NCBI RefSeq assembly: GCF_002854065.1 | Contig: NZ_CP024147.1 | Length of the DNA: 64,000 nt | Origin: Escherichia coli | Lineage (GTDB): Bacteria; Pseudomonadota; Gammaproteobacteria; Enterobacterales; Enterobacteriaceae | Reading direction: 5' to 3' (one strand) | Shown: positions 2,528 to 44,700 of the stretch, piece by piece | Numbering within the stretch: the first letter of the stretch is position 1 | Layout: each line of letters starts with the position of its first letter | Position numbers and translations under genes: made by a program | The notes under the pieces: model-generated | What the model was told of the DNA's origin: nothing | What the model saw: the letters and a program-made list of their open reading frames with translations, nothing else | The model's database searches: none

Positions 2528-2614
2528 TTAATGCTGGATGCCGCTCACTCGTCTACCGCGCAAAGAAGATGCGTTTAGTAGTAGTAGACCGATAAAGCGA
2601 ACGATGTGAGTCAT
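2528..2614 (-). CDS. leuL: leu operon leader peptide (28 aa)
   Basis: [28 protein letters not shown] is the C-terminal 28 aa of the 63-aa track ORF 2528..2719; four consecutive CTA Leu codons (plus strand tagtagtagtag at 2576-2587). Confidence 0.88.
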
Positions 2615-3271
2615 TAAATCAGCTCCAGATGAATGCGATATGCTTTTAGAGTTACTGGATACAAAAACGGATGTCAACCCTGACGCAATAAAAACGTCCC
2701 GCCAGCATGAGTTCTGCATCCGTAAAATTAGCTAATTGTGCTGCTGTGGTTAAAACAAGCGATATTAATTTCTGCTTAACTACCGACGCTTTTCATCGGT
2801 TGACATATTTCAGAATAAATTTTTGCATCTAATCCACGAGGAAAAAGGGGACAAAATGCACGCGTTGCAAAACCTATCCTGATGATTTGTATTGAATTAT
2901 ATGTTTTGCGGATTTTTTGATATTGATTTGGTGAATATTATTGATCAATTAATGTTAAGAATTAATGCATTAAACATATAAATAAATTATTAAAAAGCAC
3001 ATTTAATCCATTTTGTGGATGATTGAGTATTCGCGGTAGTTATGATTAGATTGTTTTCGCAACAAAAACATTATGGATTATTATGCTGTGGTGAGTGACG
3101 CTTTCCACGGCAATGGATTCTGTTTTTATAAGAACCCGTATCTTTATGTTTTCCTAATTTTACTCATTTTCCTTTTTCTTATTTTATATGCATGATAAAT
3201 CATATTCTCGAGGATTATTTCTCTGCATTCCAATAAGGGAAAGGGAGTTAAGTGTGACAGTGGAGTTAAGT

Positions 3272-4216
3272 ATGCCAGAGGTACAAACAGATCATCCAGA
3301 GACGGCGGAGTTAAGCAAGCCACAGCTACGCATGGTCGATCTCAACTTATTAACCGTTTTCGATGCCGTGATGCAGGAGCAAAACATTACCCGTGCCGCT
3401 CATGTTCTGGGAATGTCGCAACCTGCGGTCAGTAACGCTGTTGCACGCCTGAAGGTGATGTTTAATGACGAGCTTTTTGTTCGTTATGGCCGTGGTATTC
3501 AACCGACTGCTCGCGCATTTCAACTTTTTGGTTCAGTTCGCCAGGCATTGCAACTAGTACAAAATGAATTGCCTGGTTCAGGTTTTGAACCCGCGAGCAG
3601 TGAACGTGTATTTCATCTTTGTGTTTGCAGCCCGTTAGACAGCATTCTGACCTCGCAGATTTATAATCACATTGAGCAGATTGCGCCAAATATACATGTT
3701 ATGTTCAAGTCTTCATTAAATCAGAACACTGAACATCAGCTGCGTTATCAGGAAACGGAGTTTGTGATTAGCTATGAAGACTTCCATCGTCCTGAATTTA
3801 CCAGCGTGCCATTATTTAAAGATGAAATGGTGCTGGTAGCCAGCAAAAATCATCCAACAATTAAAGGCCCGTTACTGAAACATGATGTTTATAACGAACA
3901 ACATGCGGCGGTTTCGCTCGATCGTTTCGCGTCATTTAGTCAACCTTGGTATGACACGGTAGATAAGCAAGCCAGTATCGCGTATCAGGGCATGGCAATG
4001 ATGAGCGTACTTAGCGTGGTGTCGCAAACGCATTTGGTCGCTATTGCGCCGCGTTGGCTGGCTGAAGAGTTCGCTGAATCCTTAGAATTACAGGTATTAC
4101 CGCTGCCGTTAAAACAAAACAGCAGAACCTGTTATCTCTCCTGGCATGAAGCTGCCGGGCGCGATAAAGGCCATCAGTGGATGGAAGAGCAATTAGTCTC
4201 AATTTGCAAACGCTAA
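3272..4216 (+). CDS. leuO: LysR-family transcriptional regulator LeuO
   Basis: Track ORF 3188..4216 trimmed to the ATG at 3272 ([33 protein letters not shown]..., 314 aa); LysR-type N-terminal HTH. Confidence 0.92.
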
Positions 4217-4533: not shown

Positions 4534-6258
4534 ATGGAGATGTTGTCTGGAGCCGAGATGGTCGTCCGATCGCTTATCGATCAGGGCGTTAAACAAGTAT
4601 TCGGTTATCCCGGAGGCGCAGTCCTTGATATTTACGATGCATTGCATACCGTGGGTGGTATCGATCATGTTTTAGTTCGTCATGAGCAGGCGGCAGTGCA
4701 TATGGCCGATGGTCTGGCGCGCGCGACCGGGGAAGTCGGCGTCGTGCTGGTAACGTCGGGTCCAGGGGCGACCAATGCGATTACTGGCATCGCCACCGCT
4801 TATATGGATTCCATTCCATTAGTTGTCCTTTCCGGGCAGGTAGCGACCTCGTTGATAGGTTACGATGCCTTTCAGGAGTGCGACATGGTGGGGATTTCGC
4901 GACCGGTGGTTAAACACAGTTTTCTGGTTAAGCAAACGGAAGACATTCCGCAGGTGCTGAAAAAGGCTTTCTGGCTGGCGGCAAGTGGTCGCCCAGGACC
5001 AGTGGTCGTTGATTTACCGAAAGATATTCTTAATCCGGCGAACAAATTACCCTATGTCTGGCCGGAGTCGGTCAGTATGCGTTCTTACAATCCCACTACT
5101 ACCGGACATAAAGGGCAAATTAAGCGTGCTCTGCAAACGCTGGTAGCGGCAAAAAAACCGGTTGTCTACGTAGGCGGTGGGGCAATCACGGCGGGCTGCC
5201 ATCAGCAGTTGAAAGAAACGGTGGAGGCGTTGAATCTGCCCGTTGTTTCCTCATTGATGGGGCTGGGGGCGTTTCCGGCAACGCATCGTCAGGCACTGGG
5301 CATGCTGGGAATGCACGGTACCTACGAAGCCAATATGACGATGCATAACGCGGATGTGATTTTCGCCGTCGGGGTACGATTTGATGACCGAACGACGAAC
5401 AATCTGGCAAAGTACTGCCCAAATGCCACTGTTCTGCATATCGATATTGATCCTACTTCCATTTCTAAAACCGTGACTGCGGATATCCCGATTGTGGGGG
5501 ATGCTCGCCAGGTCCTCGAACAAATGCTTGAACTCTTGTCGCAAGAATCCGCCCATCAACCACTGGATGAGATCCGCGACTGGTGGCAGCAAATTGAACA
5601 GTGGCGCGCTCGTCAGTGCCTGAAATATGACACTCACAGTGAAAAGATTAAACCGCAGGCGGTGATCGAGACTCTTTGGCGGTTGACGAAGGGAGACGCT
5701 TACGTGACGTCCGATGTCGGGCAGCACCAGATGTTTGCTGCACTTTATTATCCATTCGACAAACCGCGTCGCTGGATCAATTCCGGTGGCCTCGGCACGA
5801 TGGGTTTTGGTTTACCTGCGGCACTGGGCGTCAAAATGGCGTTGCCAGAAGAAACCGTGGTTTGCGTCACTGGCGACGGCAGTATTCAGATGAACATTCA
5901 GGAACTGTCTACCGCGTTGCAATACGAGTTGCCCGTACTGGTGGTGAATCTCAATAACCGCTATCTGGGGATGGTGAAGCAGTGGCAGGACATGATCTAT
6001 TCCGGCCGTCATTCACAATCTTATATGCAATCGCTACCCGATTTCGTCCGTCTGGCGGAAGCCTATGGGCATGTCGGGATCCAGATTTCTCATCCGCATG
6101 AGCTGGAAAGCAAACTTAGCGAGGCGCTGGAACAGGTGCGCAGTAATCGCCTGGTGTTTGTTGATGTTACCGTTGATGGCAGCGAGCACGTCTACCCGAT
6201 GCAGATTCGCGGGGGCGGAATGGATGAAATGTGGTTAAGCAAAACGGAGAGAACCTGA
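4534..6258 (+). CDS. ilvI: acetolactate synthase III large subunit
   Basis: Track ORF 4450..6258 trimmed to the ATG at 4534 ([28 protein letters not shown]..., 574 aa); thiamine-diphosphate enzyme. Confidence 0.93.
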
Positions 6259-38304: not shown

Positions 38305-39155
38305 CGCTATTTACAACCTTACTGGTGTTAATTTTCGAGCGCCTGTTTAAGTTGGGCGAGCACTGGCAGCTTGATCATCGTCTTGAAGCGTTCTTTCGGC
38401 GGGTGAAACATTTTTCTCTCGGGCGCACGTTAGGCATGACCATTATTGCGATGGGCGTGACTTTTTTACTGTTACGCGCATTGCAGGGAGTATTGTTCAA
38501 CGTTCCCACGCTGCTGGTGTGGCTGCTGATTGGTTTGCTGTGTATTGGCGCAGGTAAAGTTCGTCTTCATTATCATGCTTATCTGACAGCTGCTTCACGT
38601 AATGATAGCCATGCCCGTGCCACGATGGCTGGCGAACTCACCATGATTCACGGCGTCCCGGCAGGCTGCGACGAACGTGAGTATTTGCGTGAGCTGCAAA
38701 ATGCATTGCTGTGGATTAACTTTCGTTTTTATCTTGCACCGCTGTTCTGGCTGATTGTGGGGGGAACCTGGGGACCCGTTACGCTGATGGGGTATGCGTT
38801 CTTGCGTGCATGGCAATACTGGCTGGCGCGATACCAGACGCCGCATCATCGTTTACAGTCCGGCATTGATGCCGTGCTTCATGTACTGGATTGGGTGCCA
38901 GTTCGTCTTGCGGGTGTGGTATATGCCTTGATCGGTCATTGTGAGAAAGCGTTACCGGCCTGGTTTGCTTCGCTGGGTGATTTCCATACTTCGCAGTATC
39001 AGGTGTTAACGCGTCTGGCGCAGTTCTCTCTGGCGCGTGAACCGCATGTCGATAAGGTGGAGACGCCGAAGGCAGCGGTTTCAATGGCGAAGAAAACCTC
39101 GTTCGTGGTCGTGGTGGTGATTGCGCTACTGACGATTTACGGGGCGTTGGTGTAA
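38301..39155 (+). CDS. ampE: inner-membrane protein AmpE
   Basis: Track ORF 38262..39155 trimmed to the ATG at 38301 ([27 protein letters not shown]..., 284 aa); ATGA overlap with the ampD stop. Confidence 0.92.
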
Positions 39156-39163
39156 AGATTATT

Positions 39164-39188
39164 GCCCTCACCGTGTACAGGTGAGGGC
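39164..39188. terminator. hairpin between convergent ampE and aroP (candidate bidirectional terminator)
   Basis: gccctcacc gtgtaca ggtgagggc perfect 9-bp stem; flanking U-tracts are weak. Confidence 0.45.
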
Positions 39189-39197
39189 GTAGAGAGA

Positions 39198-40571
39198 TTA
39201 ATGCGCTTTTACGGCTTTGGCGGTTTTCTCTTTAAACAGATAGCCGATACCTAACACGATCAGCCATACCGGGATCAGGTATACCGAAATCGCCATTCCT
39301 GGGGTCATCAGCATAATCACCAGTACCGCCGCCATAAACAGCAGGCAGATCCAGTTACCCAGCGGATAAAGCAGAGCAGGGAAGCGAGTTACCACGCCTT
39401 GTTCCTGCTTGGCGCGACGGAATTTCATATGCGCCAGGCTAATCATCGCCCAGTTGATCACCAGTGCAGATACCACCAGCGCCATTAACAGGCCAAATGC
39501 GGATTCCGGAGCAAGATAGTTAATCAGTACGCACAATGCCGTTACCAGTGCAGACACCAGAATGGTGTTAACCGGTACGCCGCGTTTATCGACAGACGCC
39601 AGCGCTTTTGGCGCATTACCCTGTTGTGCCAGACCAAACAGCATACGGCTGTTGCAATATACGCAGCTGTTGTACACGGAGAGCGCCGCAGTCAGCACCA
39701 CGATGTTCAGCGCATTCGCCACAAAGGTATCGCCTAACTCGTGGAAGATCAGCACAAACGGACTGGTATCGGCGGTAACGCGGGTCCACGGCATCAGTGA
39801 GAGCAGAACGGCTAACGAACCAATATAGAAAATCAGGATGCGGTAGATAACCTGGTTAGTTGCTTTCGGGATACTTTGCTCCGGGTTATCAGCTTCTGCT
39901 GCGGTGATCCCCACCAGTTCCAGACCACCGAACGAGAACATGATAATCGCCATCATCATCACCAGCCCGGTGAAGCCGTGCGGCAGGAAACCACCTTGAT
40001 CCCACAGGTTGCTAACGGTCGCCTGCGGGCCGCCGTTGCCACTGAATAGCAGCCAGCCGCCGAAGATGATCATCGCTACTACCGCAATAACTTTGATAAT
40101 GGCAAACCAGAACTCCATCTCACCAAACACTTTTACGTTGGTCAGGTTGATGGCGTTAATCACCACAAAGAACACGGCGGCAGAAACCCAGGTTGGGATT
40201 TCCGGATACCAGAACTGAATGTATTTACCCACAGCAGTCAGCTCTGCCATGGCAACTAAAACGTACAGTACCCAGTAGTTCCAGCCAGAAGCGAAGCCAG
40301 CAAAGCTGCCCCAGTATTTATAAGCAAAGTGGCTAAAGGAGCCTGCGACAGGTTCTTCGACCACCATTTCACCCAGCTGACGCATGATCAGAAAGGCGAT
40401 AAAACCAGCAATGGCGTAACCCAGGATAATTCCTGGCCCTGCGGACTGTATTACGGAGGCGCTACCCAGGAATAGTCCTGTCCCTATCGCGCCACCCAGC
40501 GCGATAAGCTGAATATGGCGGTTTTTAAGGCCGCGCTTTAGCTGCTCGCCGTGCTGTTGACCTTCCATCAT
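39198..40571 (-). CDS. aroP: aromatic amino acid:H+ symporter (APC family)
   Basis: 457-aa ORF MMEGQQHGEQLKRGLKNRHIQLIALGGAIGTGLFLGSASVIQ... Confidence 0.96.
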   Translation of the reverse strand: MMEGQQHGEQLKRGLKNRHIQLIALGGAIGTGLFLGSASVIQSAGPGIILGYAIAGFIAFLIMRQLGEMVVEEPVAGSFSHFAYKYWGSFAGFASGWNYWVLYVLVAMAELTAVGKYIQFWYPEIPTWVSAAVFFVVINAINLTNVKVFGEMEFWFAIIKVIAVVAMIIFGGWLLFSGNGGPQATVSNLWDQGGFLPHGFTGLVMMMAIIMFSFGGLELVGITAAEADNPEQSIPKATNQVIYRILIFYIGSLAVLLSLMPWTRVTADTSPFVLIFHELGDTFVANALNIVVLTAALSVYNSCVYCNSRMLFGLAQQGNAPKALASVDKRGVPVNTILVSALVTALCVLINYLAPESAFGLLMALVVSALVINWAMISLAHMKFRRAKQEQGVVTRFPALLYPLGNWICLLFMAAVLVIMLMTPGMAISVYLIPVWLIVLGIGYLFKEKTAKAVKAH

Positions 40572-41111
40572 GAAACCTCGTGCGGTGATTGTTTTTTTGA
40601 TCTACGCAGTGATGCGTGTGTAAGTTTGCAATTCCGTTTGTTGTATTAATTTGTTTACATCAAAGAAGTTTGAATTGTTACAAAAAGACTTCCGTCAGAT
40701 CAAGAATAATGGTATGCGGCAGCGAATGCACCCGCTTTATGCATGGTTGAAGATGAGTTGCTTAAAAAGAAACCGTTTGTAAAGCTCAGCCTCAACCCCT
40801 CTCAATATGCAGAATGAATTTAAATTCGTTTTAATAGAATTAAAAATCACAAAATTGGTAAGTGAATCGGTTCAATTCGGATTTTTATAGTTTAATAATC
40901 GTTAAAAAATCCCTTTCCTACGTAAAGTCTACATTTGTGCATAGTTACAACTTTGAAACGTTATATATGTCAAGTTGTTAAAATGTGCACAGTTTCATGA
41001 TTTCAATCAAAACCTGTATGGACATAAGGTGAATACTTTGTTACTTTAGCGTCACAGACATGAAATTGGTAAGACCAATTGACTTCGGCAAGTGGCTTAA
41101 GACAGGAACTC

Positions 41112-41876
41112 ATGGCCTACAGCAAAATCCGCCAACCAAAACTCTCCGATGTGATTGAGCAGCAACTGGAGTTTTTGATCCTCGAAGGCACTCTCCGCCC
41201 GGGCGAAAAACTCCCACCGGAACGCGAACTGGCAAAACAGTTTGACGTCTCCCGTCCCTCATTGCGTGAGGCGATTCAACGTCTCGAAGCGAAGGGCTTG
41301 TTGCTTCGTCGCCAGGGTGGCGGCACTTTTGTCCAGAGCAGCCTATGGCAAAGCTTCAGCGATCCGCTGGTGGAGCTGCTCTCCGACCATCCTGAATCAC
41401 AGTATGACTTGCTCGAAACACGACACGCCCTGGAAGGTATCGCCGCTTATTACGCCGCGCTGCGTAGTACCGATGAAGACAAGGAACGCATCCGTGAACT
41501 CCACCACGCCATAGAACTGGCGCAGCAGTCTGGCGATCTGGACGCGGAATCAAACGCCGTACTCCAGTATCAGATTGCCGTCACCGAAGCGGCCCACAAT
41601 GTGGTTCTGCTTCATCTGCTAAGGTGTATGGAGCCGATGTTGGCCCAGAATGTCCGCCAGAACTTCGAATTGCTCTATTCGCGTCGCGAGATGCTGCCGC
41701 TGGTGAGTAGTCACCGCACCCGCATATTTGAAGCGATTATGGCCGGTAAGCCGGAAGAAGCGCGCGAAGCATCGCATCGCCATCTGGCCTTTATCGAAGA
41801 AATTTTGCTCGACAGAAGCCGTGAAGAAAGCCGCCGTGAGCGTTCTCTGCGTCGTCTGGAGCAACGAAAGAATTAG
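41112..41876 (+). CDS. pdhR: pyruvate dehydrogenase complex repressor (GntR/FadR family)
   Basis: Track ORF 41079..41876 trimmed to the ATG at 41112 ([48 protein letters not shown]..., 254 aa). Confidence 0.93.
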
Positions 41877-42036
41877 TGATTTTTCTGGTGAAAATTATCC
41901 AGAAGATGTTGTAAATCAAGCGCATATAAAAGCGCGGCAACTAAACGTAGAACCTGTCTTATTGAGCTTTCCGGCGAGAGTTCAATGGGACAGGTTCCAG
42001 AAAACTCAACGTTATTAGATAGATAAGGAATAACCC

Positions 42037-44700
42037 ATGTCAGAACGTTTCCCAAATGACGTGGATCCGATCGAAACTCGCGACTGGCTCCAGGCGATCG
42101 AATCGGTCATCCGTGAAGAAGGTGTTGAGCGTGCTCAGTATCTGATCGACCAACTGCTTGCTGAAGCCCGCAAAGGCGGTGTCAACGTAGCCGCAGGCAC
42201 CGGTATCAGCAACTACATCAACACCATCCCCGTTGAAGAACAACCGGAGTATCCGGGTAATCTGGAACTGGAACGCCGTATTCGTTCAGCTATCCGCTGG
42301 AACGCCATCATGACGGTTCTGCGTGCGTCGAAAAAAGACCTCGAACTGGGCGGCCACATGGCGTCCTTCCAGTCTTCCGCAACCATTTATGATGTGTGCT
42401 TTAACCACTTCTTCCGTGCACGCAACGAGCAGGATGGCGGCGACCTGGTTTACTTCCAGGGCCACATCTCCCCGGGCGTGTACGCTCGTGCTTTCCTGGA
42501 AGGTCGTCTGACTCAAGAGCAGCTGGATAACTTCCGTCAGGAAGTTCACGGCAATGGCCTCTCTTCCTATCCGCACCCGAAATTGATGCCGGAATTCTGG
42601 CAGTTCCCGACCGTATCTATGGGTCTGGGTCCGATTGGTGCTATTTACCAGGCTAAATTCCTGAAATATCTGGAACACCGTGGCCTGAAAGATACCTCTA
42701 AACAGACCGTTTACGCGTTCCTCGGCGACGGTGAAATGGACGAACCGGAATCCAAAGGTGCGATCACCATCGCTACCCGTGAAAAACTGGATAACCTGGT
42801 CTTCGTTATCAACTGTAACCTGCAGCGTCTTGACGGCCCGGTCACCGGTAACGGCAAGATCATCAACGAACTGGAAGGCATCTTCGAAGGTGCTGGCTGG
42901 AACGTGATCAAAGTGATGTGGGGTAGCCGTTGGGATGAACTGCTGCGTAAAGATACCAGCGGTAAACTGATCCAGCTGATGAACGAAACCGTTGACGGCG
43001 ACTACCAGACCTTCAAATCGAAAGATGGTGCGTACGTTCGTGAACACTTCTTCGGTAAATATCCTGAAACCGCAGCACTGGTTGCAGACTGGACTGACGA
43101 GCAGATCTGGGCACTGAACCGTGGTGGTCACGATCCGAAGAAAATCTACGCTGCATTCAAGAAAGCGCAGGAAACCAAAGGCAAAGCGACGGTAATCCTT
43201 GCTCATACCATTAAAGGTTACGGCATGGGCGACGCGGCTGAAGGTAAAAACATCGCGCACCAGGTTAAGAAAATGAACATGGACGGTGTGCGTCACATCC
43301 GCGACCGTTTCAATGTGCCGGTGTCTGATGCAGATATCGAAAAACTGCCGTACATCACCTTCCCGGAAGGTTCTGAAGAGCATACCTATCTGCACGCACA
43401 GCGTCAGAAACTGCACGGTTATCTGCCAAGCCGTCAGCCGAACTTCACCGAGAAGCTTGAGCTGCCAAGCCTGCAAGACTTCGGCGCGCTGCTGGAAGAG
43501 CAGAGCAAAGAGATCTCTACCACTATCGCTTTCGTTCGTGCCCTGAACGTGATGCTGAAGAACAAGTCGATCAAAGATCGTCTGGTACCGATCATCGCCG
43601 ACGAAGCGCGTACTTTCGGTATGGAAGGTCTGTTCCGTCAGATTGGTATTTACAGCCCGAACGGTCAGCAGTACACCCCGCAGGACCGCGAGCAGGTTGC
43701 TTACTATAAAGAAGACGAGAAAGGTCAGATTCTGCAGGAAGGGATCAACGAGCTGGGCGCAGGTTGTTCCTGGCTGGCAGCGGCGACCTCTTACAGCACC
43801 AACAATCTGCCGATGATTCCGTTCTACATCTATTACTCGATGTTCGGCTTCCAGCGTATCGGCGATCTGTGCTGGGCGGCTGGCGACCAGCAAGCGCGTG
43901 GCTTCCTGATCGGCGGTACTTCCGGTCGTACCACCCTGAACGGTGAAGGTCTGCAGCACGAAGATGGTCACAGCCACATTCAGTCGCTGACTATTCCGAA
44001 CTGTATCTCTTACGACCCGGCTTACGCTTACGAAGTTGCTGTCATCATGCATGACGGTCTGGAGCGTATGTACGGTGAAAAACAAGAGAACGTTTACTAC
44101 TACATCACTACGCTGAACGAAAACTACCACATGCCGGCAATGCCGGAAGGTGCTGAGGAAGGTATCCGTAAAGGTATCTACAAACTCGAAACCATTGAAG
44201 GTAGCAAAGGTAAAGTTCAGCTGCTCGGCTCCGGTTCTATCCTGCGTCACGTCCGTGAAGCAGCAGAGATCCTGGCGAAAGATTACGGCGTAGGTTCTGA
44301 CGTTTATAGCGTGACTTCCTTCACCGAACTGGCGCGTGATGGTCAGGATTGTGAACGCTGGAACATGCTGCACCCGCTGGAAACTCCGCGCGTTCCGTAT
44401 ATCGCTCAGGTGATGAACGACGCTCCGGCAGTGGCATCTACCGACTATATGAAACTGTTCGCTGAGCAGGTCCGTACTTACGTACCGGCTGACGACTACC
44501 GCGTACTGGGTACTGATGGCTTCGGTCGTTCCGACAGTCGTGAGAACCTGCGTCACCACTTCGAAGTTGATGCTTCTTATGTTGTGGTTGCGGCGCTGGG
44601 CGAACTGGCTAAACGTGGCGAAATCGATAAGAAAGTGGTTGCTGACGCAATCGCCAAATTCAACATCGATGCAGATAAAGTTAACCCGCGTCTGGCGTAA
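42037..44700 (+). CDS. aceE: pyruvate dehydrogenase E1 component
   Basis: 887-aa [44 protein letters not shown]... Confidence 0.98.

Follow-up and report, generated by a model that had tools for sequence, protein, structure and literature searches.

The AT-rich aroP-pdhR spacer of Escherichia coli: probably a shared control region of two divergent genes, and an empty PAIusp attachment site with a core of constant length

The stretch of Escherichia coli DNA analysed here (the window, 64,000 nucleotides) carries aroP at 39198-40571 on the - strand and pdhR on the + strand with its ATG at 41112. The two divergent genes are separated by the following feature.

40572-41111, no strand assigned: aroP-pdhR intergenic spacer, 540 bp, 35% G+C, without an annotated gene

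This gap has a G+C content of 35.0%, compared with 52.1% for the whole window, and reaches its lowest value of 27.5% at 40800-40999. Equally AT-rich windows of 540 bp make up 0.6% of the total, and all the others fall in the leuL-leuO spacer. By size, the gap ranks third behind leuL-leuO (657 bp) and cra-mraZ (601 bp), a ranking based on the annotation of the near-identical strain CUWW06, which is colinear with the window to about 49,310. Neither CUWW06 nor the MG1655 RefSeq record has an annotated gene in the gap, and its longest open reading frames (ORFs), of 43-44 codons, have GTG or TTG as start codons and lack conservation. The original prediction, a large AT-rich non-coding gap with no ORF of note, is borne out by these figures, the length of 540 bp being exact. 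The window matches MG1655 with 98.9% identity over 940 bp (ten substitutions, no indels); MG1655 coordinates are obtained by adding 80,980 to those of the window, and BL21 coordinates by adding 83,785. Coordinates, motifs, the conservation pattern and the division into alleles described below were read directly from the sequences.

One stretch of the window alone exceeds the gap in AT content, the leuL-leuO spacer at 2531-3430 (31.5% G+C), which is listed as promoter island 83898_426 in PMC3661553. In strain CUWW06 (NZ_CP182139.1), a DUF3300 gene downstream of lpdA is interrupted by an IS1B, and the window diverges from this strain at about 49,310; from there on the window presumably lacks this insertion or is otherwise different.

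The arrangement of the two genes is widely shared among enterobacteria. A PdhR scan of one genome per species gave 80 loci, and in 79 of them the gene diverging from pdhR is aroP. The gap measures 524-653 bp in 78, including about 602 bp in both Serratia genomes, the exception being Superficieibacter. Klebsiella and Raoultella have longer gaps (640-653 bp) because of a G+C-rich insertion of about 100 bp in the aroP leader (e.g., L067 about 5860-5990), aligned at about 40607 of the window. An alignment of 34 species reveals conserved blocks at the TyrR boxes, at AGAATAATGGTAT, at 40724-40783, at the palindrome TGAATCGGTTCA, and over nearly all of 40922-41111. The features on the aroP side are as follows.

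40619-40636, no strand assigned: weak TyrR box TGTAAGTTTGCAATTCCG, four mismatches to TGTAAA-N6-TTTACA, found by pattern scan
40642-40659, no strand assigned: strong TyrR box TGTATTAATTTGTTTACA, two mismatches to TGTAAA-N6-TTTACA
40704-40715, + strand: AATAATGGTAT block, holding the P3 -10 element TGGTAT at 40710-40715
40724-40783, no strand assigned: ungapped 60-bp block GAATGCACCyGCTTTAT...TAAAAAGAAAcCaTTTGTAAA, conserved without indels just downstream of the P3 start

Both a weak and a strong TyrR box have been reported for the aroP region (PMC7142922), and the window has the strong box with the weak one adjacent to it, upstream of the P3 -35 element. The block with the weak box is kept across genera, and the strong box shows conservation of at least 0.9 at most positions of the 34-species alignment. 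The -10 element of P3, TGGTAT, which has been defined and mutated experimentally (PMC7142922), sits within the invariant AGAATAATGGTAT block and is itself near-invariant in the 34 species. What these elements do is taken from the literature. According to PMC7142922, which summarises Wang, Yang, Lawley and Pittard (1997-98), aroP is transcribed from promoters P1 and P2, and the divergent promoter P3 overlaps P1; TyrR together with an aromatic amino acid activates P3, and RNA polymerase is thereby kept off P1. TyrR binding and the switching between P1 and P3 were reported by Wang et al. (1997-98, cited in PMC7142922) for the K-12 sequence, in which P3 has very low activity and is transcriptionally non-productive (PMC7142922). 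The positions of P1, P2 and P3 used here are second-hand, through PMC7142922.

The P3 transcript reads into the gap on the + strand from about 40722. The original prediction would have been refuted had no transcript other than the leaders of aroP and pdhR been detected; a third one does start inside the gap, from the divergent, TyrR-activated P3, and has been described before (PMC7142922). From geometry we infer that CATTAT at 40705-40710 on the - strand would be the overlapping -10 element of aroP P1, and the 40724-40783 block is probably the upstream part of the P1 promoter region. A simple sigma-70 consensus scan of 40400-41300 found no promoter-like site (0 against 1.9 expected); the known promoters are thus non-canonical, and this placement of P1 gains no independent support from the scan. 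A 215-bp fragment of the spacer is listed as an aroP-lacZ fusion construct (PMC7142922). Taken together, the locus, both TyrR boxes, TGGTAT and the overlapping divergent promoters are those of the aroP region of the TyrR regulon (Wang et al., 1997-98; Pittard, 2005; PMC7142922), and the window differs in nothing substantive from the P1/P2/P3 region of K-12.

The pdhR side holds a second set of well-described elements.

40922-41053, + strand: pdhR upstream region and core promoter, highly conserved
40997-41010: FNR-like site ATGATTTCAATCAA (also written TTGATtgaaATCAT), motif match
41019-41024, + strand: pdhR -35 element TGGACA
41043-41048, + strand: pdhR -10 element TACTTT
41054-41111, + strand: pdhR 5' leader, from the start point given in PMC2759082
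41064-41080: PdhR box AATTGGTAAGACCAATT, perfect, 17 bp, at +11 to +27 from the start point

The published pdhR promoter string GTATGGACATAAGGTGAATACTTTGTTACTTTAGCGTCA is matched exactly at 41016-41054. A single start point, an A located 58 nt before the ATG, has been reported for pdhR, with Crp, Fnr and PdhR given as its regulators (Olvera et al., 2009, PMC2759082), and this A maps to 41054 of the window. The PdhR box consensus AATTGGTnnnACCAATT is matched perfectly at 41064-41080, so as to overlap the early transcribed region. In published work this box is the top genomic SELEX site with a 14/14 match, centred at MG1655 122052, that is, window 41072 (PMC7660256). Other reports describe repression of the operon by Cra and its activation by CRP, with Cra binding downstream of the pdhR promoters (Kim et al., 2018), the regulation of aroP and pdhR as a pair bidirectionally through Fnr (Federowicz et al., 2014), and binding of the spacer by PlaR in SELEX. 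With its identical promoter string, a start point 58 nt before the ATG and a perfect PdhR box, the window shows no difference from the known pdhR-aceEF-lpd promoter (Quail and Guest, 1994-95; PMC2759082; PMC7660256). One further observation concerns the leader: the Term-seq supplement of Adams et al. lists a + strand 3' end at MG1655 122093, corresponding to window 41113, the second base of the pdhR start codon. It implies an RNA of about 60 nt consisting of the pdhR leader alone (41054-41113), which could arise by a pause, by processing or by attenuation.

Upstream of the conserved pdhR region lies a short palindrome.

40863-40874, no strand assigned: palindrome TGAATCGGTTCA, conserved, 11/12 match to the Cra/FruR sequence TGAAWCGWTTCA

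The 11/12 match holds for the Cra operator written as TGAAWCGWTTCA or RSTGAAWCSNTHHW, and the motif is not significant on its own, since the window contains 2 matches to the Cra-like motif against 0.83 expected. The box TGAA[ATC]CG[GC]TTCA is found in 58 species at fixed spacing, and the palindrome is retained beside the PAIusp island in strains that carry usp. From its sequence, TGAATCGGTTCA is probably a distal Cra site. The published Cra peak may be another site: TGAATCGCCTCA at 41267-41278 on the - strand, inside pdhR, is a weaker candidate with 2 mismatches and fits the report of downstream binding better. A further Cra-like sequence with 2 mismatches, TGAAACGTTATA, lies at 40954-40965 in the conserved pdhR upstream region. 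Two other readings of binding sites were set aside. The published PlaR box has the form TGAA-N6-TTCA, whereas the spacing within TGAATCGGTTCA is N4, and GAATGCACCTGC is by eye a poor match to a sigma-54 or NtrC-like site.

Between the two conserved sides, the sequence is almost unconstrained.

40784-40860, no strand assigned: variable AT-rich core

Median pairwise identity within this core is 0.36-0.39, compared with 0.28 for shuffled sequences, and the sequence is near saturation. The core nevertheless measures 76-77 bp in 52 of 58 species; the G+C content remains at 35-38%. Measured between landmarks, 138-139 bp separate the GAATGCACC block from the TGAAnCGnTTCA box in 52 of 58 species, and 200-202 bp separate the latter from the PdhR box in 57 of 58, giving 338-341 bp overall from the aroP promoter block to the PdhR box. 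Because spacing and G+C content are fixed while the sequence is nearly saturated, the length and composition of the core are constrained and its sequence is not. This length constraint is the only feature without an explanation in the literature that we consulted on the locus. A core of fixed length would fit phasing or bridging between the control regions on either side, or a spacer friendly to H-NS. The stronger proposal, that the aroP and pdhR control regions are physically coupled, their distance being held within about 1 bp across some 50 species, is one that we regard as rather unlikely. If true, the coupling might take the form of a phased loop or a nucleoprotein bridge of H-NS, Cra and TyrR by which the uptake of aromatic amino acids is tied to pyruvate sensing, and which the insertion of PAIusp would break in usp+ strains.

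The core and its surroundings have also been described from another angle. Panyukov and Ozoline (2013, PMC3661553) list 121694_343, between aroP(-) and pdhR(+), as one of 78 "promoter islands", which combine an extreme density of predicted start points with bound RNA polymerase and H-NS and with little full-length RNA (PMC3661553; see also Shavkunov et al., 2009). Mapped from their table, with no re-computation, island 121694+343 corresponds to 40714-41056 of the window and is H-NS-bound, with the entry "G" in the H-NS column. The PlatProm criteria by which such islands were defined differ from those of the simple consensus scan, which found none of the 1.9 expected sites here. Most promoter islands adjoin horizontally acquired genes; the one between aroP and pdhR, in contrast, occupies an ancient, vertically inherited spacer between core genes, and in K-12 it is marked by 1 of the 5 predictors of foreign genes in Table 1 of PMC3661553.

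PAIusp, which comprises the usp genotoxin gene and imu1-3, is transcribed from P3, is repressed by H-NS (Rihtar et al., 2020, PMC7142922), and has its integration site at this same aroP-pdhR locus, where the window has the usp-negative allele. A query spanning the gap was split in about 1,060 of 5,426 complete E. coli genomes. Counted separately, usp is present at the site in 1059 genomes and the empty-allele segment 40742-40921 (180 bp) in 4364; the sum, 5423, accounts for all of the 5,426 genomes in which the locus is present. The two alleles thus strictly exclude each other, with usp+ genomes making up about 20% of E. coli. In CFT073, SCU-116 and KC-Dl-1, an island of about 4.1 kb lies between the two halves of the query and contains usp (annotated as tssD, an Hcp-pyocin-nuclease fusion of 593 aa), immunity genes and orphan toxin fragments; that of CFT073 has an additional IS3 element. 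The part of the window which the island displaces is given below.

40742-40861, no strand assigned: segment unique to usp-negative genomes, replaced by the PAIusp island in usp+ strains

The flanks at 40372-40741 and 40922-41311 are common to usp+ genomes, and 40862-40921 has a diverged, weakly similar counterpart adjoining the island, including an exact GTGAATCGGTTCA. Relative to the window, the junctions thus fall at 40741|40742 and at about 40861-40921, and the window, having the common flanks and lacking the island, carries an empty PAIusp attachment site. Since 40742-40783 is conserved in genera without usp, the allele of the window is the ancestral one, part of which PAIusp replaced. The segment 40742-40921 is more polymorphic than its flanks: only 535 of the 4,364 genomes are at least 99% identical to the window there and 454 fall below 95%, while the whole 740-bp query is at least 99% identical in 4,210 genomes.

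The flanks of the island are themselves diverged. The left flank in usp+ strains has 63% identity to the window over 40627-40726 (L003 1800-1900), compared with 92-100% elsewhere in aroP (90-100% for the coding sequence), and Citrobacter provides the closest match to the right flank (87-91%). This suggests that the island came with its flanks, by homologous exchange through the conserved flanking sequence, and usp+ strains seem to carry a foreign aroP promoter region that the island brought along. Outside E. coli, the exceptional Superficieibacter sp. 1612_C1 has an aroP-pdhR gap of 1,978 bp (L059 4523-6500) with a truncated or split usp homologue, 81.6% identical to E. coli usp at the nucleotide level over 1,220 bp and divided into two ORFs (195 and 158 aa); immunity genes are not apparent in that gap. 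Superficieibacter is thereby another genus among the carriers of the island at this site. To what was known of PAIusp, our comparison adds the strict alternation of the alleles, the diverged flanks and this homologue.

These data bear directly on whether the AT-rich core might be a scar left by horizontal acquisition, for instance of a decayed PAIusp or other island. A G+C content as low as 27.5% resembles that of foreign DNA, the locus is a proven integration point, and promoter islands are said to go with foreign genes. Nearly all Enterobacteriaceae examined, however, share the same spacer length and flanking blocks, Serratia has a spacer of comparable length (about 602 bp), and similarity between the core and PAIusp is limited to matches of 13-17 bp. 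Moreover, the usp+ and usp-negative alleles are mutually exclusive replacements, which makes the empty allele ancestral. The scar explanation is therefore largely refuted, and we give it next to no probability.

Long regulatory spacers of this type had been put forward in the original prediction as candidate locations for unannotated small RNAs or small proteins. The regulatory character of the spacer holds, through TyrR and P3 on one side and the pdhR promoter on the other, but a hidden small RNA or small protein in the gap is not supported. For RNA, the covariance-model search that had been proposed was carried out as a permissive Rfam scan of 39000-43000, which returned no match inside the gap even at E<=10; elsewhere it returned tp2 and a chance snoRNA match.

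41921-42034, - strand: tp2 family match (Rfam RF02030), 103.4 bits, gathering score 50, E = 3e-19

According to the original prediction, the candidate tp2 has been annotated in or near pdhR in K-12. It is indeed near pdhR, yet outside the gap: the match falls in the pdhR-aceE spacer, downstream of pdhR and 810 bp past the gap, and 40572-41111 contains no tp2 match above the gathering score. A partial match on the + strand (41950-41997, 29.5 bits) covers the central hairpin. The family is unannotated in the current MG1655 RefSeq record, and tp2 may be the mirror image of a pdhR terminator or attenuator. Strong + strand Term-seq 3' ends at MG1655 122941 and 122968, equal to window 41961 and 41988, lie inside the tp2 hairpin.

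It has also to be considered whether P3, or another promoter of the island, yields a functional small RNA on the + or - strand. Such a product would suit P3, which is a real TyrR-activated promoter without a known product in usp-negative strains, and whose -10 element and first 60 or so transcribed bases show strong conservation that extends to genera without usp; a few Enterobacter-like genomes further show a terminator-like hairpin 100-135 nt downstream. Against it, besides the blank Rfam result, stands the lack of any fold clearly above shuffles in 18 windows of 87-120 nt on both strands (z from -2.49 to +1.02). The best of these folds (z = -2.49) comes from a 57-bp palindrome in the DNA at 40936-40992, which was rejected as a candidate, being specific to E. 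coli with its arms lost in other genera. RNAalifold gave no consensus structure: 0 pairs at the palindrome and, in the P3-proximal block, two trivial ones, all without covariation. A scan of the E. coli gap found no terminator-like site, and across 65 species terminator-like hairpins are sporadic and confined to few genomes. Term-seq (Adams et al.) places no 3' end at MG1655 1216xx-1219xx, which on the - strand is the covered part of the gap (121552-122091), and its + strand lists jump from ampD (about 118765) to 122093 or 122287. The low, non-productive activity of P3 in K-12 (PMC7142922) points the same way, and we consider a functional small RNA from the gap very improbable.

For small proteins, a survey of the gap against the 34-species alignment took in 25 ORFs with a minimum of 8 codons, and none combines conservation with a Shine-Dalgarno (SD) sequence or with codon periodicity. 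ORFs intact in most species occur only in the near-invariant 40935-41049, with TTG or GTG starts and without an SD sequence. An upstream ORF from the ATG at 41060, overlapping the pdhR start, was discarded with its ATG conserved in only 50-70%. Ribosome profiling, suggested earlier as a check, was consulted in the form of the BL21 Ribo-RET table (Stringer et al.; + strand, one growth condition), which offers no credible start codon in the gap: its sole + strand entry there is a 3-codon TTG ORF at 41038, inside the pdhR promoter. One frame was considered at greater length.

40726-40782, + strand: 18-codon ORF MHPLYAWLKMSCLKRNRL, inside the conserved 60-bp block, a few bases past the P3 start

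If translated on the P3 transcript, this mini-ORF would be a nearly leaderless upstream ORF or encode a small peptide, and the usp leader of usp+ strains would carry it as an upstream ORF. Most species share an invariant ATG, the 57-nt stretch is free of indels from genus to genus, and the usp+ allele keeps 18 codons as well despite unrelated downstream sequence (MHLLYVDVLIFWIKKKQL). No stop interrupts codons 6-17 in 67% of species, compared with 43% of shuffles, a weak signal given that the sequences are related. The frame is 18 codons long in 30 of 63 species; in 18 of 63, on the other hand, it stops at codon 12 after 11 codons, and the majority consensus has TGA there. Codon periodicity is absent, with entropies of 0.60/0.57/0.55 by codon position. 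There is no SD sequence, and a start codon about 4-5 nt from the inferred P3 start point is ill placed for leaderless and for SD-led initiation alike. The BL21 + strand table has no Ribo-RET peak at the ATG and no entry near 40726, and the invariant MHLLY coincides with the DNA block that probably belongs to the aroP promoter. The ORF, at first promising as a gene, thus failed on periodicity and integrity, and its translation seems to us very improbable. A regulatory mini-ORF or RNA encoded at the conserved beginning of the P3 transcript is less likely than the physical coupling considered above.

The preferred reading, which we hold with high confidence, is that aroP and pdhR, two ancient neighbours with divergent transcription, share the gap as their control region. 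The aroP side, about 215 bp (40572-40783), holds the leader, the weak and strong TyrR boxes, P1, P2 and the opposing P3, where TyrR with an aromatic amino acid recruits RNA polymerase to P3 and so shuts off P1, as published. On the pdhR side, about 190-250 bp (40863-41111), a sigma-70/sigma-38 promoter starts transcription at 41054, and PdhR represses its own gene from the perfect box (+11 to +27); CRP and FNR are credited with the sites upstream, and the distal site would probably be that of Cra. The middle 76-77 bp drifts freely in sequence at constant length and composition and, with neighbouring DNA, makes up the published H-NS-bound, poorly productive promoter island. Where PAIusp occupies the gap, in usp+ genomes, P3 drives usp, and the window represents the ancestral empty allele.

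Seen in this light, the gap is among the better-characterised intergenic regions of E. coli, its content being already known, and can be dropped as a lead for a new small RNA or protein. The residual questions concern the core of constrained length and the conserved beginning of the P3 transcript, and a length constraint, should it prove real, would add modestly to what is known of a well-studied locus. As an example, the gap illustrates how the TyrR regulon, through aromatic transport, and the PdhR regulon, through pyruvate, share one ancient spacer, how a toxin island takes over a pre-existing "decoy" promoter, P3, and how selection may act on the length and AT content of a spacer and not on its sequence.
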